From Vicinamibacterales bacterium (GTDB lineage Bacteria; Acidobacteriota; Vicinamibacteria; Vicinamibacterales; UBA2999), in the NCBI GenBank assembly GCA_050250955.1, contig JBFWNR010000002.1:537634-601633 (forward strand): DNA of 64,000 nucleotides, given 5' to 3'. Shown piece by piece: positions 11,613-64,000 of the stretch (position 1 is its first letter; each line of letters begins with the position of its first letter). Under the pieces are notes generated by a model. It made no database searches and was not told the DNA's origin. It saw only the letters and a list, made by a program, of their open reading frames with translations. A program made the translations under genes and the position numbers.

Positions 11613-11955
11613 CCCCGGGCCCCGCGCCCCGCGTCCCGAGCCCCGGCTCTTCGTCGTCGTCGCGCGGCAGGCCGACGAGCTCGTCGACGAAGACCAGCGA
11701 GTGCATCGACGGGATCTCGAACCGCTTGCCGCACGTCTTGCAGGTGAGCTCGTCGTCGACGCGGATGAGGTGGTCGCGCAGCTTGGCGAACTTGGCCTTG
11801 TCGGCGGCGTCGGCGTTGGCCGGCGGCCGGTCCTTTCTGGTGCGGCGCACCCAGCGCAGCTGGTAGTCGTTCACGCGGCGGCAGCGGGGGCAGGTGTAGC
11901 GGCCGCTGCGCGGTTCGGGACGCTCGGTGAAGAAGGCGCGCTCGTCGAGGGCCAT
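11506..11955 (-). CDS. Small zinc-ribbon protein (two CxxC pairs), hypothetical
   Basis: 149 aa, ATG at 11955. Contains CPRC...CKTC. The conserved-looking part ends near DELVGLPRDDDEE and the remaining tail is low-complexity. That tail overlaps the convergent methyltransferase 3' end by 107 nt, so the real stop or extent is uncertain. Confidence 0.5.
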   Translation of the reverse strand: MALDERAFFTERPEPRSGRYTCPRCRRVNDYQLRWVRRTRKDRPPANADAADKAKFAKLRDHLIRVDDELTCKTCGKRFEIPSMHSLVFVDELVGLPRDDDEEPGLGTRGAGPGVSTGPEPSASAPGGNTPGTPAPRQRKGYAPPKAWR

Positions 11956-16821: not shown

Positions 16822-16837
16822 GGGCGGCCGCACCCCG

Positions 16838-16864
16838 CCGCTAGCCCCTAGCCGCTAGCCCCTA
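16838..16864. repeat. CTAG heptad repeat (GCTAGCC/CCTAGCC x4) between convergent genes
   Basis: Plus strand: ccGCTAGCC CCTAGCC GCTAGCC CCTAttc, with period 7. Minus strand: TAGGGGC TAGCGGC TAGGGGC TAGCGGC, whose first TAG is the stop codon of the 16862..17560 gene. The upstream TAGGGGC (16819-16825, stop of the M24 gene) is complementary to GCCCCTA units. Confidence 0.9.
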
Positions 16865-48135: not shown

Positions 48136-49412
<1,277 letters not shown>

Positions 49413-56220: not shown

Positions 56221-58284
56221 ATGGCCATCCGCCCTGCCGTGGCACCGCCGGAATCATCGGTCGAGACGGCGTGCCCGCTCGACTGCCCCGACGCCTGCAC
56301 GCTGTCGATCACCCTGAGGGGCGGACGCATCGCCACCATCGACGGCGGCCACACCAACCCGGTCACCGGCGGCTACATCTGCGCCAAGGTCCGTCGCTTC
56401 GGGGCTCGCGTCTACGGCGACGACCGCCTGCACTTCCCCGCCGTCCGCGCCGGCGCCAAGGGCACGGCGAGCTTCCAGCGCGTGAGCTGGGATGACGCCC
56501 TCGATCGCATCGCCGAGCGGCTGTCGACGATCCGGGCCGAATCAGGCGGCGAGGCCATCCTGCCGCTGTGCTACGGCGGCTCGAACGGCTTCCTGACCCA
56601 GGACGGCGCCGACGCGTCGCTGTTCCGGCGTCTCGGCGCCGCCCGCCTGGCCCGCACCGTGTGCGCCGCCCCGACCGGTGCCGCCAACCAGGCGCTGTAC
56701 GGCAAGATGGCGTCGGTCGTCTATCAGGACTATCCCGAGGCGCGGTTGATCCTGCTGTGGGGCGTCAACCCGTCGGCCTCCGGCATCCACCTGATGCCGT
56801 ACCTGAAGGATGCCCGCGCCCGCGGCGCGACCATCGTGGTCGTCGATCCCCGCGCGACGACGGTCGCCCGCCAGGCCGACATCCACCTGGCGATCCGGCC
56901 GGGAACCGACGTCGTCGTGGCGCTGGCCATCCATCGGCACCTGTTCACGAGCGGGACCGCCGACGAGCGCTTCCTCGCCGAGCACACCACCGGGGCCGAG
57001 CAGCTCCGCCGGCAGGCCGAGCCGTGGACGTTCGCCCGCGCCGCCGAGGTCAGCGGCCTCGGGGCCGAGGACATCGAACGCGTCGCCCGTCTCTACGCCA
57101 CGAGCCAGCCGGCGCTGATCAAGTGCGGGTGGGGCCTCGAACGCAACCGCAACGGCGGCAACGCCGCACTGGCGGTGCTGGCCCTGCCGGCGGTGGGCGG
57201 CAAGTTCGGCGTCCGCGGCGGCGGCTATTCGATGAGCAACTCGGCGTCGTGGGGGATCGCCCGCTCGTGGCTGCGCGACGCGGAACCGCAGACGCGCGTG
57301 GTGAACATGAACCAGGTCGGTCGTGAACTGACCGACCCGACCGGGACGCCGACCCGCGGGCTGTTCGTCTACAACTGCAATCCGGCGGTGACCCTGCCCG
57401 ATCAGCAGCGCGTGCTGGCCGGGCTGGCCCGCCCGGACCTGTTCACGGTGGTGTTCGATCAGGTGTTGACCGACACGGCCGCCTTCGCCGACGTGGTCCT
57501 GCCGGCGACGACCTTCCTCGAACACTACGACTTCGCCAAGGGGTACGGCGCCCTCAGTCTGCAGCTGGCCCGGCCGGCCATCGAGCCGATCGGCGAATCG
57601 CGGCCGAACGCCGACGTGTTCCTGGCGCTGGCGGCGCGGCTCGGGCTCGACGCGCCCGACGATCCGGCCGACGAACTCGAACAGATGCTCGGAGTGATCG
57701 CCGCTCTGCCCGGGGCCGTGGGCGATGAGATCCGTGCGCACGGCCACGCGACGCCGCCGCACGGCGGCCGGCCGGTGCAGTTCGTGGACGTGTTTCCCCA
57801 GACGCCGGATCGGAAGGTGGCGCTCTGGCCGGAAGGGATCGCCAGCGACGCGCCGCTGGGGCTCTACGCCTACGTCGCCGATCCGGGGACGCCCGAGTTT
57901 CCCCTGGCGCTCATCTCTCCCGCCTCGGAGCGCACCGTCAGCTCGACGCTCGGCGAGTTGGATCGCCCACGTGTGCTCCTCGAGATGCACCCCGACGACG
58001 CGACGCCGCGCGGCATCGGTGACGGCGACGACGTCCGCGTCCACAACGCGCTCGGCGCCATGGAGTGCGGCGTGAAGGTCACGCCGCTGGTCCGGCCCGG
58101 CACCGTGTCGTTTCCGAAGGGCGTGTGGCGGCGGCACACCGGCAACGGCCTCACCGCCAACGCCCTCGTCCCCGACACGCTGACCGACCTCGGCGGCGGT
58201 GCGTGCTTCAACGACGCCCGAGTGGAGGTGGCGCTGGTCGCCACCTCCCGCCGATCGCGCACCCGCCCGGAGCGGGTGCAATAG
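56221..58284 (+). CDS. Molybdopterin-dependent oxidoreductase (MopB superfamily, N-terminal 4Fe-4S)
   Basis: 687 aa. CPLDCPDACTLSI...YICAKV is the Cys cluster. LWGVNPSAS and VVVDPRAT. C-terminal molydop-binding beta barrel (MHPDDA...GDGDDVRVHN). The predicted Mo-ligand position carries Cys (TVCAAPTG). Confidence 0.9.
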   Translation: MAIRPAVAPPESSVETACPLDCPDACTLSITLRGGRIATIDGGHTNPVTGGYICAKVRRFGARVYGDDRLHFPAVRAGAKGTASFQRVSWDDALDRIAERLSTIRAESGGEAILPLCYGGSNGFLTQDGADASLFRRLGAARLARTVCAAPTGAANQALYGKMASVVYQDYPEARLILLWGVNPSASGIHLMPYLKDARARGATIVVVDPRATTVARQADIHLAIRPGTDVVVALAIHRHLFTSGTADERFLAEHTTGAEQLRRQAEPWTFARAAEVSGLGAEDIERVARLYATSQPALIKCGWGLERNRNGGNAALAVLALPAVGGKFGVRGGGYSMSNSASWGIARSWLRDAEPQTRVVNMNQVGRELTDPTGTPTRGLFVYNCNPAVTLPDQQRVLAGLARPDLFTVVFDQVLTDTAAFADVVLPATTFLEHYDFAKGYGALSLQLARPAIEPIGESRPNADVFLALAARLGLDAPDDPADELEQMLGVIAALPGAVGDEIRAHGHATPPHGGRPVQFVDVFPQTPDRKVALWPEGIASDAPLGLYAYVADPGTPEFPLALISPASERTVSSTLGELDRPRVLLEMHPDDATPRGIGDGDDVRVHNALGAMECGVKVTPLVRPGTVSFPKGVWRRHTGNGLTANALVPDTLTDLGGGACFNDARVEVALVATSRRSRTRPERVQ

Positions 58285-58296
58285 GCCAGTCCAGGC

Positions 58297-58506
58297 TTAC
58301 GCGGCTTCGCTCGCTTCGGGCAGCTTGCCACGACCGCCGCGGCTGACCATCCCGCCCTTGCGTCCGGCGTCGCGCGCCTCGACCGACGACCATTCGTGCG
58401 CCGTGCCTTTGGCATGCGCGGCACGGCCGCCCTTGCTGGCGATCTCGCGCTGCTTCTCGGGGGACATCGATGCGAATCCTCGACGGGCCTTCGGCTTGTC
58501 AATCAT
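58297..58506 (-). CDS. KGG-repeat general stress protein (YciG-like)
   Basis: 69 aa. SPEKQREIASKGGRAAH and GRKGGMVSRGG. GAGGTG Shine-Dalgarno 7 nt upstream of the ATG. Confidence 0.8.
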   Translation of the reverse strand: MIDKPKARRGFASMSPEKQREIASKGGRAAHAKGTAHEWSSVEARDAGRKGGMVSRGGRGKLPEASEAA

Positions 58507-59012: not shown

Positions 59013-59306
59013 ATGAGCGACCGTTCCGACTCTCCCCGCCTCGTGCAATGCGTCAAGCTCCAGCAGGAGCTGCCGGGACTGGAGGCGCCGCCGTGGCCAG
59101 GCGACATCGGCCAGCGGATCTACGAGCAGGTGTCGGCCAAGGCGTGGAAGCTCTGGGAGGATCGCCAGAAGATGATCCTCAACGAATACCGCGTGATGCC
59201 CTGGCAGAAAGAAGGGCAGGAACTCATCCTCAAGCACATGGAGGAGTTCTTCTTCGGCGCCTCGGCCGCGCTGCCGCCCGGCTACGTCCCGCCGCAGTCG
59301 AAGTAG
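59013..59306 (+). CDS. yggX: Fe(2+)-trafficking / oxidative-damage protection protein YggX
   Basis: 97 aa. VQCVKLQQELPGLEAPPWPGDIGQRIYEQVSAKAWKLWEDRQKMILNEYRV...MEEFFFG. Confidence 0.85.
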   Translation: MSDRSDSPRLVQCVKLQQELPGLEAPPWPGDIGQRIYEQVSAKAWKLWEDRQKMILNEYRVMPWQKEGQELILKHMEEFFFGASAALPPGYVPPQSK

Positions 59307-59316
59307 CGGCGGGCCG

Positions 59317-60609
59317 CTACCCGCGCGCCACCGGCAGGGCCGGCTCGATGACCGGCTCGATGGCGGCGTGCGCGCGGCGCAGCGCCGCTTCCACCGCTGC
59401 CCCGTCGGCGCCGGAGGCGAACACGAACCCCAGATAGCTCGCCCCCTCGGGCAGAGCGTCCAGCAGCGCGCCGACCCGTGCGGTCACGACGACGTCGGTG
59501 ATCCCGGGCACCTGGCGTGCGGCATCGATGCCGCGCAGGTCGCGCAGCACCCCGGAACGCGGGATCGGCACCATCAGCACCCCGGTGGCGGCGCGGTCGC
59601 GACTCCAGCCGACGAGCGACTCCCCCATCGCCGCGCGCAGCAGCAGCGCCTCGAGCGACGCCGGTACGTGGTCGGGGCCGCGAAAGCAGAGCGCGCGGGC
59701 GCACAGGCCGCCGATCGGCCGCGCCGCCACCTCCAGGACGACCGGGCCGGCGTCGCCGACGCGGCATTCGGCGTGGATCGGACCGTGGCGCAGCCCGGCG
59801 GCACGCGCGGCCTGCGTGACCGCGGCGATCACCGGCAGCGCGGCGGCCGCGGTGCGCGCGGTGGGTGTGACGTAGTAGGTCTCCTCGAAGAACGGCCCAT
59901 CGAGCGGATCGGGCTTGTCGAAGATCGCCAGCACGTGCAGGCGGCCGTGGTCGAGGACGCCTTCGAGCGCGACCTCGAAGCCGGGCACGAACGCCTCGAT
60001 CTGGACCAGCCGGGCGGCGGGGTCGCGGAGTGCCTGCACGTCGGGAGCGGCCAGGACGCCGGCCACCCGCGTCAATGCGGCGGCGAGCTGTTCCGGGTCG
60101 TCGGCACGGATGACCCCGCGGCTCCCCGAGAGCACGAGCGGCTTCACCACGCAGGGGTATGTCACGTCGCGTAGCCGGTCGACCGAGGCATCCAGCGGCA
60201 CGACGCGCGACCAGGGCCCCGGCAGCCCCGCGGCGGCGATACGGCGGCGAAACCGCTGCTTGTCGCGACTCGCCCGCGCCCCGTCAACCTCGTGCCACGG
60301 CAGGCCCAGGCGCTCGGCGACCAGGGCCGCGAGCACCACCGGCCGGTCGCCCACCGCCAGCACGCCGTCGATCGGCCGGCCGTCCAGCGCGGTCGTCACC
60401 GCGGCCAGCGACCCGGCCTCGTCGTGGAAGCGGACGGCGATGGCGCGGTCCCGCCAGGGATCATCGAGGTGATCGCAGCGGTCGGTGGCGAGCACGAGCT
60501 CGACGCCGAGCGCCGTCGCGGCCTCGTCGAAGCTGCGCGTCTGATAGCCGGTGGTCGTGGCGCAGACCAGCACGCGACGTGGCTCGGAGGGTCGAGACAC
60601 GCAGTCCAT
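59317..60609 (-). CDS. ATP-grasp domain protein (amino-acid/carboxylate ligase-like)
   Basis: 430 aa, ATG at 60609. Pre-ATP-grasp RVLVCATTTGYQTRSFDEAA...IDGVLAVGD. Core KQRFRRRIAAAGLPGP...YPCVVKPLVLSGSRGVIRADD...IEAFVPGFEVALEG...GPIHAECRV...VLEVAARPIGG. Confidence 0.85.
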   Translation of the reverse strand: MDCVSRPSEPRRVLVCATTTGYQTRSFDEAATALGVELVLATDRCDHLDDPWRDRAIAVRFHDEAGSLAAVTTALDGRPIDGVLAVGDRPVVLAALVAERLGLPWHEVDGARASRDKQRFRRRIAAAGLPGPWSRVVPLDASVDRLRDVTYPCVVKPLVLSGSRGVIRADDPEQLAAALTRVAGVLAAPDVQALRDPAARLVQIEAFVPGFEVALEGVLDHGRLHVLAIFDKPDPLDGPFFEETYYVTPTARTAAAALPVIAAVTQAARAAGLRHGPIHAECRVGDAGPVVLEVAARPIGGLCARALCFRGPDHVPASLEALLLRAAMGESLVGWSRDRAATGVLMVPIPRSGVLRDLRGIDAARQVPGITDVVVTARVGALLDALPEGASYLGFVFASGADGAAVEAALRRAHAAIEPVIEPALPVARG

Positions 60610-60610
60610 C

Positions 60611-60645
60611 CTAATCGCTAGCCGCTAGCCGCTAGCCGCTACGAG
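60611..60645. repeat. CTAG heptad repeat, five units (CTAATCG CTAGCCG CTAGCCG CTAGCCG CTACGAG)
   Basis: Fills the 38-nt spacer between the second stop of the radical SAM gene (60650-60648) and the ATP-grasp ATG (60609). Minus strand reads TGA TTC TCG TAG CGGCTAGCGGCTAGCGGCTAGCGATTAGG ATG. Confidence 0.9.
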
Positions 60646-60647
60646 AA

Positions 60648-62027
60648 TCATAGGAGAGCCACCTGCTCTCCCGTCGGTTCCGCTCAACAGTACCAGGGCT
60701 CGGTCAGGTAGGGAATCGTCGCCCGCGACCGTCGCGGCGGCTCGGTGCGCGCCGGCATGCCCCGGGCGCGATCGGCCAGCTGCCGCACGGCGGCGAAGAT
60801 CGCGCCGCGATCGCCGCCGGCCGGTGCCGCGGCGACCAGCCGCATGGCCTCGCGCTGCAGGTCATCCATGGCCGGATCGTCGTGGCGCCACGGGTGCGTC
60901 AGCGACCGGGCGTCGAACGCTCCCACGCGCCGCCGCACGTCGTCGAGTTCGAGCAGCCGCGAGCGCGCGGTGACGAGCAGGCGGAGGGTCAGCTGCACCG
61001 GCGCCACGTGGCCGACCAGGTCGAGGCGCTCCACCTCGTCGAGGAACGCCGCATAGCCGTCGCGGGTCGTCCACGGCGTGAAGGCGATGAAGGTCGGCGA
61101 GAGCGCCAGCCCGACGTCGCGGCACCGCGCCACGACCGCCGCGACGTCGGCCGCCGTGTGCCCCTTGGCCAGACGCGCCAGCACCGCGTCGTCGAACGAC
61201 TCGACCGCCGTGGTCACGAATTGGCACCCGGTGTCGCGCAGGACCGGCAGCGCGGCATCGTGGGCGCGGAGGTGCTCGACCTTGATCGTGACGTCGTAGG
61301 TCAGCGCCGGCCAGGCAGCGTGCAGGGCCTCGACGACACGGCGGGCATGGGTCGGCGCATTGAGGAAGTCGGGATCGCCGAAGCTGATGTGCGCGGCGCC
61401 GGCGGCCACCTGGGTGGCGACGTCGGCCATCACCACCTCCACCGGCACGACGCGGAAGCGGCCGTCGTAGACCGGCACGATCGGGCAGTGCCGGCAGCGG
61501 TGCTTGCAGCCGCGCGACGCCTCGGTGGCGCCGGCGGTGACCAGCGTGCCGTCGGTCCGCCGCAACCGGGCGTAGGCGGTGAGCGGCGGCAGGTCGCGGC
61601 GATCCGGCGGGATGAACGCCAGCCGCGGGAGCGGGGCCGGGGGCGGCGTGCCGAGGGCGCTGCCGGCCGCCGCCGCGGCGGCGAGATCGACCAGCGTCGC
61701 CTCGGCCTCGGGCCCGACGACGGCGGTGATGCCCGCCGCTTCGAGCTCGACGCGGTTGAGCGGCGCGTACAAGCCGTAGGCGCACATCGGCAGCGACGGC
61801 AGCCGCTGGCGGATGGCGGCGACGACCGGCAGGGCGAGCCGCGTCGCCGTGTGCATCGGCAGGTGCACCGCGACCAGCGTGACACCGTCGAGCGCCGACG
61901 AGGGCAGCCGCGCCAGCGACAGGTCGTGGGCCCGGACAGCGAACCCGGCCCGCCGCAGCCACGCCGCGGGCGAGGCCAGTCCGAACGGCTGGCGGCCGAG
62001 ATCGTACGCCGACAGCAGCAGGACCAG
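60648..62027 (-). CDS. B12-binding-like / radical SAM protein with C-U-A-E-P tail (putative selenoprotein)
   Basis: Track ORF 60684..61868 (GTG start, stops at TGA). Radical SAM Cx3Cx2C in ASRGCKHRCRHCP. Upstream, the same frame stays open to 62051 and encodes the coding-like STLVLLLSAYDLGRQPFGLASPAAWLRRAGF.... There is no ATG, GTG or TTG there, so CTG 62027 is the proposed start. Downstream read-through gives U-AEPTGEQVALL, then TGA at 60650-60648. Confidence 0.75.
60652..60672 (-). promoter_or_regulatory. Bacterial SECIS-like hairpin downstream of the in-frame UGA
   Basis: Minus-strand RNA: UGA GCGGAACCGAC G-GGAGAGC-AGGUG-GCUCUCC-U. It has 7 Watson-Crick pairs plus a closing G-U and a 5-nt loop containing GGU. 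The stem begins 11 nt after the UGA. Confidence 0.6.
60684..60686 (-). other. In-frame TGA, candidate selenocysteine codon (C-U-A-E-P)
   Basis: Minus strand reads TGT TGA GCG GAA CCG. See the CDS 60648..62027. Confidence 0.65.
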
Positions 62028-62031
62028 GGTG

Positions 62032-63519
62032 CTACCCCGCCGGCTCGTCGGTCAGCCGGCTCATCGGCTTGACGAAGAGCGCCAGGACCAGACCGGCCGC
62101 GATCGCGAACGCGCCGACCACGCCGAACAGTGTCGGCAGGGCCATCGACTCGTAGAGCCCGCCGATCCGCCCGCCGATGAAGTTGCCGACCGATGTGCCG
62201 AGGAACCACACGCCCATCACCAGGCCGGCGATCCGCGCCGGCGCCAGCCTGGTCATCGCGCTCAAGCCGACCGGCGACAGCGACAGTTCGCCCATCGTGT
62301 GCAGCAGATAAGTGAGCACCAGCCAGAGCGGGCTGGCGAGCACGCCGGCTTCGGCGGCGCGCGCCGGCGGCACCAGGACGACGAAGCCCAGTCCGACGAG
62401 CACCAGCCCCCAGACGAACTTGCCGGGACTGGTCGGCTCCAGACCGCGCGCCCCGAGCGTCACCCACAGCCAGGCGAACACCGGCGCGAGCGTGAAGATG
62501 AAGAACGAGTTCACGCTCTGGAACCAGCTGCTCGGAAACGGCAGCCCGAAGACTTCGGTCCGGGTGTCGCGATCGGCGAAGAGATTGAGCGTCGAGCCGG
62601 CCTGCTCGAACACCGACCAGAACAGCGCCGAGGCGAAGAACAGCACGCCGATCACGTAGAGGCGGCGGCGCTCGGCCGGCGTCCAGTCGCCGGCGAAGAA
62701 CAGCCAGCCGAAGAACACGACGGTGCTGACCAGCAGCGCGACCCCGGCGGCATCGGCCACCGCGACGGCCGTGATCGGCAGGGCGCCGCTGGCGCCGCCC
62801 AGCCCGACGACGGCGGCGAGGCCGAGGGCGATGGCGCCCCACAGCCCGGCCTGGCGCCGCGCCACCGCCTGGGCGGCCGGGGCGGCCGCCGGGTGCAGAC
62901 CGGCCTCGCCGAGCAGGCGGTTCCCGGTGGCGACGTACTGGATGAGGCCCAGCGTCATGCCGACGCCGGCCGCCGCGAACCCGGTGTGCCAGCTCACCCG
63001 CTGGCCCAGGTAGCCGCAGACCAGCGGCGCCAGGAACGCCCCGAGGTTGATGCCCATGTAGAAGATCGAGAACCCGGCATCACGGCGCTGATCCTCGGGC
63101 CGGTAGAGGTGTCCGACGATCACCGAGACGTTGCCCTTGAGCAGCCCGGTGCCGACGACGATGAAGGTGAGGCCGAGGTAGAAGGTGGCCTGGGTCGGAA
63201 TCGCCGCGGTGAAGTGGCCGGCGGCGATGATGACCCCGCCCCAGAGCACCGCCCGCCGCGGGCCGATCAGACGGTCGGCCACCCAGCCGCCGGGCAGCGC
63301 CGCCATGTAGGCCATCGAGGTGTAGAGCGCGTAGATGGCGCCGCCCTCGGCGGCCGACAGGCCCAGGCCGCCGGCGGCGAGCGGCGCCGTGCAGTAGAGC
63401 AGCAGCAGCGCCCGCATGCCGTAGAAACTGAAGCGCTCCCACATCTCGGTGAAGAAGAGGGTGGAGAGGCCGCGGGGGTGACCGAAAAAGGCGGTGTCCG
63501 ACGAGGGCGCCTGGGCCAT
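62032..63519 (-). CDS. POT/PTR2 family proton-dependent di/tripeptide transporter
   Basis: In-frame ATG 63519. FFGHPRGLSTLFFTEMWERFSFYGMRALLLLY and GGWVADRLIGPRR are PTR2 signatures. About 14 TM helices. Confidence 0.9.
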   Translation of the reverse strand: MAQAPSSDTAFFGHPRGLSTLFFTEMWERFSFYGMRALLLLYCTAPLAAGGLGLSAAEGGAIYALYTSMAYMAALPGGWVADRLIGPRRAVLWGGVIIAAGHFTAAIPTQATFYLGLTFIVVGTGLLKGNVSVIVGHLYRPEDQRRDAGFSIFYMGINLGAFLAPLVCGYLGQRVSWHTGFAAAGVGMTLGLIQYVATGNRLLGEAGLHPAAAPAAQAVARRQAGLWGAIALGLAAVVGLGGASGALPITAVAVADAAGVALLVSTVVFFGWLFFAGDWTPAERRRLYVIGVLFFASALFWSVFEQAGSTLNLFADRDTRTEVFGLPFPSSWFQSVNSFFIFTLAPVFAWLWVTLGARGLEPTSPGKFVWGLVLVGLGFVVLVPPARAAEAGVLASPLWLVLTYLLHTMGELSLSPVGLSAMTRLAPARIAGLVMGVWFLGTSVGNFIGGRIGGLYESMALPTLFGVVGAFAIAAGLVLALFVKPMSRLTDEPAG

Positions 63520-63561
63520 ACGCGCGGGTATTGTATCCTTCGCGCCAGGCCGATACCGCGC

Positions 63562-64000
63562 ATGCCACTCGACGAATACCGCAGGAAACGCGACTTCACC
63601 AAGACACCCGAGCCGTCGGGCGAGCCCGGCCCGCGGCCGGCCGACACCAGCCGCTACTTCTGCGTCCAGAAGCACCTGGCCAGCCATCTCCACTACGACC
63701 TGCGTCTCGAACACGACGGCGTGCTGCTGTCATGGGCGGTGCCCAAGGGCCCCTCGCTCGACACCCGCGACAAACGCCTGGCCATGCAGACCGAGGATCA
63801 TCCCTACGACTATGGGTCGTTCGAAGGGGTGATACCCGAGGGCTACGGCGCCGGCGTGGTGATGCTGTGGGACTACGGCACCTGGACCCCGGAGTCGCCC
63901 GACGTCGACGCCGCCCTCAAGAAGGGCGATCTGAAGTTCCGTCTCGACGGCTACAAGCTGAAGGGCTCGTGGGCCCTCATCCGCACCCGCGGCTACGGCG
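63562..64000 (+). CDS. ligD: DNA ligase D, 3'-phosphoesterase domain (partial, continues beyond window)
   Basis: Not in the ORF track (no stop inside the window). Own translation from ATG 63562: MPLDEYRRKRDFTKTPEP...YFCVQKHLASHLHYDLRLEHDGVLLSWAVPKGPSLDTRDKRLAMQTEDHPYDYGSFEGVIPEGYGAGVVMLWDYG. Confidence 0.85.
   Translation, partial: MPLDEYRRKRDFTKTPEPSGEPGPRPADTSRYFCVQKHLASHLHYDLRLEHDGVLLSWAVPKGPSLDTRDKRLAMQTEDHPYDYGSFEGVIPEGYGAGVVMLWDYGTWTPESPDVDAALKKGDLKFRLDGYKLKGSWALIRTRGYG

Follow-up and report, generated by a model that had tools for sequence, protein, structure and literature searches.

In Escherichia coli, the selenocysteine insertion sequence (SECIS) of fdhF comprises a minimal element of 17 nucleotides (nt), with an 11 nt spacing and a GGUC loop, and a bulged U in the 5′-strand of the fdhF stem is a SelB contact. 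The WH3/4 domains of SelB bind the fdhF hairpin (PMC7590224). The consensus for a bacterial SECIS (bSECIS), taken here from Fig. 2A of PMC13188914, where the bSECISearch model (Zhang and Gladyshev) is summarised, has a loop of 3 to 9 nt with G[G/U] at its start, the G being at loop position 1 or 2 and usually preceding a G or U, a stem of 4 to 16 base pairs (bp), a spacing of 16 to 37 nt and a minimum free energy (MFE) of −7.5 kcal/mol or below (PMC13188914). Remnant, or 'fossil', SECIS hairpins have been documented downstream of cysteine (Cys) codons after the conversion of selenocysteine (Sec) to Cys (Zhang et al. 2006, PMC1794560). The NCBIfam family NF040546 is one of a small number of CU-motif selenoproteins listed in a 2022 preprint by Haft, which calls the family uncharacterised and describes no SECIS for it. 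Here we report on a hairpin within a gene of this family, in a 64,000 nt stretch of DNA from a Vicinamibacterales bacterium (Acidobacteriota; contig JBFWNR010000002.1, positions 537,634 to 601,633). This whole stretch is designated the window and all positions given below refer to it. Based on comparison with related loci, we estimate a probability of about 90% that the minus strand hairpin at 60672-60652 is a bSECIS that recodes the UGA at 60686-60684 as Sec in a CUAEP-tail radical S-adenosylmethionine (SAM) enzyme.

The listed open reading frame (ORF), 60684-61868 on the minus strand, ends with the residues ...TEPWYC followed by UGA. Its product matches NF040546, named 'CUAEP/CCAEP-tail radical SAM (seleno)protein', with 500.9 bits, just above the cut-off of 500, in an alignment to positions 53-457 of the 468-position profile. 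With the N-terminus extended, the frame being open to 62051, and with the tail read through the UGA and U entered as C, the score is 588.7 bits over positions 1-467 of 468 and the 11 residues after the UGA therefore belong to the curated family. The protein has the radical SAM motif CKHRCRHC (CxxxCxxC), is matched by Pfam Radical_SAM and has the C-terminus ...PWYC-UGA-AEP. Three GenBank proteins of identical sequence (MGD9903206.1, MGE0123454.1 and MGE4223300.1), from a Vicinamibacterales metagenome-assembled genome (MAG), start at the CTG codon discussed below, have 447 residues and end ...PWYC. Their records bear the name of the selenoprotein family and lack the Sec and the 11-residue tail, and ~90 of the top 120 database homologues are likewise cut at the UGA. 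A protein search for the family gave at least 8,000 hits. As TGA ends 24 of 33 ORFs in the window, UGA is not globally reassigned.

A preliminary description of this locus, made from its letters alone, had drawn a SECIS-like hairpin behind the UGA, and every element of that drawing is present. The minus strand reads UGA, then GCGGAACCGAC and then G-GGAGAGC-AGGUG-GCUCUCC-U, so that the RNA following the UGA is GCG GAA CCG ACG GGA GAG CAG GUG GCU CUC CUA UGA. The 21 nt at 60652-60672 form seven Watson-Crick pairs, a terminal G-U pair and a 5-nt loop, AGGUG, that begins 19 nt past the in-frame UGA. The hairpin lies inside the extended coding tail, A-E-P-T-G-E-Q-V-A-L-L, which is ended by the second UGA at 60650-60648. 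The hairpin is part of the MFE structure of 60630-60700 and also of the centroid structure. Across contexts of 41 to 451 nt, its pairs have a mean probability of 0.91-0.98, and the probability of the competing pairing described below is ~0 in the window; dominance of a competing structure had been named in the preliminary description as a refutation. The hairpin is the thermodynamically dominant local structure in the window and, with a 5-nt AGGUG loop, an 8-bp stem, a 19 nt spacing and an energy in isolation of −13.0 kcal/mol, falls within all of the published bSECIS limits.

Related loci were collected by a profile-guided scan with one genome per species, which gave 80 loci. The codon aligned with the UGA is TGA in 57 and TGC or TGT in 21; the remaining two are a truncated locus and one where the site could not be located. 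The window and its four closest relatives also have TGA at this position. The status of the UGA as a candidate Sec codon, proposed from the window alone, is strengthened by its alignment with Cys in the 21 loci and by homology that runs on through the UGA. The tail is in frame at all placed loci, most often with 11 residues, and the tails of Cys-type homologues have equal length and similar sequence, for example CCAEPTAEQVTLV. The residues A-E-P are invariant, with zero entropy at tail positions 1-3 in Sec and Cys forms alike, and in columns 16-24 of alignment A2 (57 UGA forms, ungapped, 48 columns) the first and second codon positions are fixed and the third positions vary. This combination is a signature of translation past the UGA, and the aligned sequences show that the 11 codons after the UGA are under protein-level selection. 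In the four closest relatives (75-79% identity), the UGA is followed by the tail AEPT[G/E]EQVALL and by a 7-8 bp hairpin with an AGGUG loop.

Some Sec forms have longer tails, of 18 or 25 residues, such as AEPTxDQL[V/A]PI....F[L/V]. These are from Terriglobia or Acidoferrales-type MAGs (L029, L038, L049, L056, L058, L059, L070, L071, L074, L077 and L079 in our numbering of loci), and have the stem GGGACC/GGUCCC, shifted by one register, and a 4-nt AGUU loop. Five members of this subgroup carry an A.C mismatch in the stem.

Covariation across orthologues had been named as a check on the hairpin, and compensatory changes are indeed present in its stem. In A2, the covariation score of the hairpin as originally drawn is 0.318 versus 0.161 ± 0.014 for shuffled alignments, with none of 500 shuffles reaching 0.318, and scores of 0.08-0.21 are obtained when the pairing partners are slid. 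The column pair 29-45 is C-G in 21 sequences, A-U in 17 and G-C in 13; pair 30-44 is A-U in 29, G-C in 12, G-U in 9 and C-G in 1; pair 32-42 is A-U in 37, G-C in 6, C-G in 2 and G-U in 2. RNAalifold, unprompted, predicts the identical helix. Based on the apical loop, the 57 UGA forms fall into three classes, 44 with a 5-nt loop, A-G-[G/U]-U-N (class 1), 12 with a 4-nt AGUU loop and one with a 6-nt loop. The 12 AGUU-loop sequences, which include the long-tail subgroup, have the register shifted by one and 5 of the 12 have an A.C mismatch. The stems are mostly unbroken and of 4-8 bp, those of five orthologues being 2 + 4 bp stems split by the A.C, and the loops are of 4-6 nt. In all 57 sequences, the second nucleotide of the loop is G, the third is G or U and the fourth is U, and the distance from the UGA to the loop is 19-20 nt in all Sec forms.

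Shared ancestry was handled by mapping the pair states onto a tree of the upstream protein sequence. Within class 1, the six core pairs stay paired in 40-44 of the 44 sequences, and parsimony requires at least 12, at least 13 and at least 5 independent state changes at three of these pairs. The two outermost pairs of the window hairpin are, in contrast, paired in only 11 and 19 of the 44, consistent with a family-wide element that has a 6-bp stem, the 8-bp version being that of the window's clade. As judged from these alignments, the family-wide element is a 6-bp core with an A-G-[G/U]-U-N loop ~19 nt past the UGA, held by compensatory substitutions in all UGA orthologues.

Other pairings in this region were evaluated and rejected. 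The codons of the invariant A-E-P, GCG GAG CC, could base-pair with GGCUCUG in the 3′-arm of the hairpin. The corresponding competing structure, GCGGAGCC of the A-E-P codons with GGCUCUG (A2 columns 17-23 with 39-45; window 60682-60676 with 60660-60654, minus strand), is 74.9% paired and has a covariation score of 0.080 versus 0.083 in shuffles. RNAalifold also draws a small helix around the UGA (columns 5-23). As the changes within it are one-sided transitions, at third codon positions only, this helix is not structural evidence.

The hairpin is specific to the UGA forms and decays in the Cys forms, as expected if the original designation of the hairpin as a SECIS is correct. The mean local MFE, from +12 to +37, is −10.1 kcal/mol for Sec forms and −5.1 kcal/mol for Cys forms (p = 1.3e-7), and a hairpin at the homologous position passes the bSECIS criteria in 51 of 57 Sec forms versus 2 of 20 Cys forms (Fisher p = 1.3e-10). 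The six Sec forms that fail miss on energy alone, with values of −5.7 to −7.4 kcal/mol. At tail positions 7-10, encoded by the loop and 3′-arm, the entropy per position is 0.13-1.26 bits in Sec forms versus 2.09-2.98 bits in Cys forms. Leu codons within the loop are UUG or UUA in 24 of 24 Sec cases, with no CUN codon (0/24), whereas UUR accounts for only 13.5% of the Leu codons in the same genes. On the tree, which has 77 sequences, Sec and Cys have interchanged at least 11 times, and the hairpin is decayed in L068, L072 and L064, which among the Cys forms are closest to Sec forms. Sec is located just 12 residues from the C-terminus, so that the tail has to accommodate the entire element, and in the Sec forms it is thus apparently the RNA, not the protein, that fixes the residues ...E-Q-[V/L]-A-L.

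Different stages of decay are visible among Bryobacteraceae-type MAGs with a TGC or TGT codon. Locus L030 retains an intact 6-bp hairpin with an AGGUG loop, L068 and L072 have 4 bp left, and in L064 the hairpin is lost.

We infer that SelB binds this hairpin and that Sec is inserted at 60686-60684. If the established bacterial mechanism applies, the hairpin, which starts 11 nt downstream of the UGA, would be at the mRNA entrance of a ribosome nearing the UGA. SelB, with guanosine triphosphate (GTP) and Sec-tRNA(Sec), would use its C-terminal winged-helix domains to bind the A-G-G-U loop and the upper stem, and would bring the Sec-tRNA(Sec), rather than release factor 2, into the A site. Having melted the hairpin, the ribosome would translate AEPTGEQVALL and terminate at the UGA at 60650-60648, which has no SECIS after it.

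Several observations weigh against the hairpin being a SECIS. Within the window, which is 72.9% GC, 3.3% of all UGA triplets are followed by an equally good hairpin, counted as a perfect Watson-Crick stem of at least 7 bp with its loop 16-37 nt downstream, and a 71-nt segment containing the hairpin has a z of −0.39 relative to shuffles, so that the hairpin alone is only mildly unusual and, given the 3.3%, is weak evidence. By two more conservative measures of covariation, namely the counts of double-change pairs and of pair types, the alignment is not above shuffles, and the MFE structure of several orthologues has the 3′-arm paired with the A-E-P codons instead. In GC-rich DNA, the bSECIS criteria are permissive in their generic form. 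As 14 of 20 Cys forms pass them somewhere at 16-37 nt, a scan of that whole interval is uninformative, and the test at the homologous position was used instead. The hairpin has no Rfam match, either with the whole window at the gathering score or within 60500-60850 at E ≤ 10, where the sole hit, to a Bag-1 internal ribosome entry site (E = 3, opposite strand), is spurious. Bacterial SECIS elements are too diverse in sequence (PMC13188914) for the missing match to be counted against membership. NCBIfam scans of ~34 window ORFs found no selA, selB or selD in the 64-kb window, and no tRNA-Sec was detected by ARAGORN, either in the window or in 60 related loci. The Sec machinery of the organism is accordingly assumed, and Acidobacteria are known to have selenoproteins (PMC1794560). 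Taken together, the comparison of orthologues, and not the lone hairpin, appears to provide the signal above chance.

The chance frequency and the z value would be as expected if the hairpin were a by-product of coding for the near-palindromic E-Q-V-A-L, or a GC-rich hairpin formed by chance and without RNA function, and the overlap of the stem with conserved codons is also in line with this. Cys forms, however, vary freely at the same stem residues. Partner codons change together, from E-Q to A-R in L025 and from E to G with GCU to GCC in L012, L033 and L043, the choice among synonymous codons is constrained, as documented above for the Leu codons in the loop, and many independent compensatory switches would be needed on the tree. 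We regard this as the least probable explanation of those considered. The UGA might also be a real stop codon, with the hairpin a 3′-end or intergenic operon element that stabilises the mRNA, provides a processing site or regulates translation of the ATP-grasp gene. The hairpin is 43 nt upstream of the ATP-grasp start codon, this gene is conserved directly downstream, and database gene calls end the protein at the UGA. But the Cys-type loci keep the downstream ATP-grasp gene and not the hairpin, the 11 codons after the UGA are in frame, with A-E-P invariant and a tail resembling that of Cys forms, and the hidden Markov model score is 88 bits higher with the N-terminal extension and tail both included. 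The ATP-grasp gene, detected by tblastn in 61 of 80 loci, is within ~300 nt downstream in 50 of the 59 loci with a placeable Sec or Cys codon, beside Sec and Cys forms alike. A search for terminator-like sites found none and the hairpin has no U-tract behind it; combined with the shared presence of the gene, this excludes a role tied to the downstream gene. A real stop codon is, overall, highly improbable.

Some soil bacteria have tRNA(Sec)-like tRNAs that carry Cys, and the hairpin might then aid recoding of the UGA to Cys, or to another residue, through such a tRNA and a SelB-like factor. It would, in that case, be a recoding signal of the SECIS type by which no selenium is delivered. The window DNA does not say by which tRNA the UGA is read, recoding of UGA in a SECIS-dependent manner has been reported for tRNAs of more than one anticodon type (hydrogenase paper, PMC13582414), and Sec and Cys evidently interchange easily at this site. 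The curated NCBI family, on the other hand, treats the UGA forms as selenoproteins, and a costly UGA plus hairpin is kept in 57 species-level genomes although UGC would suffice to insert Cys. The selenoproteins documented in Acidobacteria also argue against recoding to Cys, which we consider very unlikely. Recoding of the UGA as Sec, directed by a bSECIS, is the reading adopted in Table 1 and below.

Table 1. Positions of the radical SAM gene, its putative recoding elements and the adjoining genes in the window
Feature	Position	Strand	Basis or remark
Complete coding sequence, CUAEP-tail radical SAM selenoprotein (predicted)	60648-62027	minus	NF040546 match; 459 residues including Sec
Probable start codon CTG	62027-62025	minus	alignment with orthologue starts
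In-frame UGA, probably read as Sec, U of the C-U-A-E-P motif	60686-60684	minus	aligned codon TGA or TGC/TGT
Spacer, 11 nt, from UGA to hairpin base (codons A-E-P and part of T)	60673-60683	minus	alignment
11-codon tail AEPTGEQVALL after Sec; codons 5-11 double as hairpin	60651-60683	minus	similar in Cys-type homologues
Putative SECIS hairpin, 5′-arm GGGAGAGC	60672-60665	minus	sequence, folding
Putative SECIS hairpin, apical loop AGGUG	60664-60660	minus	sequence, folding
Putative SECIS hairpin, 3′-arm GCUCUCCU	60659-60652	minus	sequence, folding
Family-wide conserved core, inner 6 bp	60670-60665 with 60659-60654	minus	covariation, RNAalifold, parsimony
Unpaired single nt between 3′-arm and true stop codon	60651	minus	
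True stop codon UGA	60650-60648	minus	sequence; orthologues use UAG, UGA or UAA
ATP-grasp gene, L-amino-acid-ligase type	59317-60609	minus	Pfam ATP-grasp_4, LAL_C2, ATPgrasp_N; directly 3′ of radical SAM gene
POT/PTR2 peptide transporter gene, upstream	62032-63714	minus	TIGR00924, 420.9 bits; stop 4 nt before CTG

No in-frame ATG, GTG or TTG is available as a start for the full-length N-terminus of the radical SAM protein. The CTG at 62025-62027 (minus strand) aligns with the ATG or GTG starts of other orthologues, and CTG is also present at this site in L081, L083, L084, L001 and L008, with ACG in L082. In L084, the reading frame opens exactly at the CTG. Located 4 nt past the transporter stop, this codon seems to be a rare start at which translation re-initiates in a coupled manner.

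At five sites in the window, 60616-60641, 2953-2991, 11613-11645, 16837-16864 and 49360-49392, all immediately behind stop codons or within short intergenic spacers, a 7-nt unit is repeated in tandem 3.7-5.6 times. The repeat at 60616-60641 has 3.7 copies of the unit CGCTAGC, with 100% identity, and is between the stop codon of the tail and the ATP-grasp start. In L081-L083 and in many of L001-L080, an array with another unit (CAGGGAC, GCGGCTG, ATTGCAG, AATCGCT, CTCGGGA and others) is present just 3′ of the radical SAM stop codon. As they follow Sec and Cys forms alike, these arrays are not part of the SECIS. Intergenic heptamer repeats have been reported in other bacteria (PMC4679880, PMC4692102).

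The transporter, radical SAM and ATP-grasp (LAL_C2) genes, followed by a convergent gene for YggX (Fe2+-trafficking protein), constitute a conserved cassette at 59013-63714. The four closest relatives, as well as 21-26 of the 80 loci, share the transporter - radical SAM order, and a YggX gene is present in 43-53 of the 80. The cassette is adjoined by genes encoding a molybdopterin oxidoreductase (56221-58284, plus strand), which is distantly related to FdhA and DmsA and whose active-site position is occupied by Cys and not by Sec, and a small stress protein with KGG repeats (58297-58506, minus strand). Both recur in ~21 of the 80 loci. One might speculate that the genes of the cassette act together, as a small biosynthetic cluster, in making a modified amino acid or a dipeptide.

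Among characterised families, the nearest is ArsL (NF040542), a non-canonical radical SAM enzyme of arsinothricin biosynthesis in which the cysteines of an RCCLKC motif bind As(III) for 3-amino-3-carboxypropyl radical transfer. The window protein matches ArsL with 228.6 bits (E = 1.5e-67) over the whole catalytic region. This is far below the ArsL cut-off of 450 bits, the alignment reaches only as far as position 407 of the 423 in the model and an RCCLKC motif is absent, so that, by sequence comparison, the protein is evidently related to ArsL and not a member of that family. The two have in common the CxxxCxxC radical SAM core and a short C-terminal tail with adjacent Cys/Cys or Cys/Sec; the tail is C-U-A-E-P or C-C-A-E-P here, whereas it is RCCLKC in ArsL. 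The neighbours also differ, being a peptide transporter, an L-amino-acid ligase and YggX here, and arsQ/arsM as reported for arsL (PMC8552651). A search for close relatives of the enzyme with a solved structure found none. By analogy with ArsL, the probable role of the Cys-Sec pair is to hold a soft substrate, either a metal or a metalloid, or to serve as a redox pair.

A wider and distinctly tentative proposal, which we think more likely wrong than right, combines the enzyme with its RNA signal. An ArsL-like, non-canonical radical SAM enzyme might transfer the 3-amino-3-carboxypropyl group of SAM to a soft metalloid or chalcogen held by the C-U dyad and, together with the L-amino-acid ligase, transporter and YggX, make and export a novel dipeptide-type antimetabolite widespread in soil Acidobacteriota. 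The SECIS would, jointly with this, represent a minimal class, with a 6-bp stem, an AGKU loop and no bulge, contained in the last 33 coding nt and setting the C-terminal peptide in place of protein function.

The hairpin is, very probably, a canonical bSECIS in an already known, uncharacterised selenoprotein family. The element appears to be undescribed for NF040546. In the literature, 'CUAEP' was found only in Haft's preprint, no description of a SECIS was found for the family, and NF040546 is not listed in a 2026 review of prokaryotic selenoproteomes. The results provide strong comparative support for a widespread radical SAM enzyme of soil bacteria being a selenoprotein, and define its RNA signal. 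The truncated database entries, in GenBank and for most relatives, lack the Sec and tail, probably a catalytically important part of the protein. With ~60 Sec forms, ~20 Cys forms and at least 11 switches between them, the family is a clean natural data set for SECIS gain and decay and a good natural series for the latter. It also provides an example of an RNA structure that dictates the C-terminal sequence of a protein. The current understanding of Sec decoding is unchanged by the finding.

As in the 'fossil' hairpins documented by Zhang et al. (2006), a Cys codon precedes what is left of the hairpin in the Cys-type relatives L030, L068 and L072. The window element is, in contrast, intact and downstream of a UGA. 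The preliminary description likened its loop to the GGUC loop of E. coli fdhF. The presence of G and U in the apical loop bears this out, but the window hairpin has no bulged U and the comparison is therefore one of resemblance only. Both are short upper stem-loops located ~11 nt past the UGA, with loops that are AGGUG or AGUU here and GGUC in fdhF. There is no sequence similarity between the two, and the cognate SelB here would be from Acidobacteriota. As in the bSECIS consensus, the stem-loop is within the coding region, just 3′ of the Sec UGA, and its loop has G as the second nucleotide and G or U as the third. Unlike the consensus, the window element is very compact, without a conserved lower stem or internal loop, and fits within the last 33 coding nt, ending 1 nt before the stop codon, and the loop motif of the family, A-G-[G/U]-U, is narrower than what the generic bSECIS model demands.

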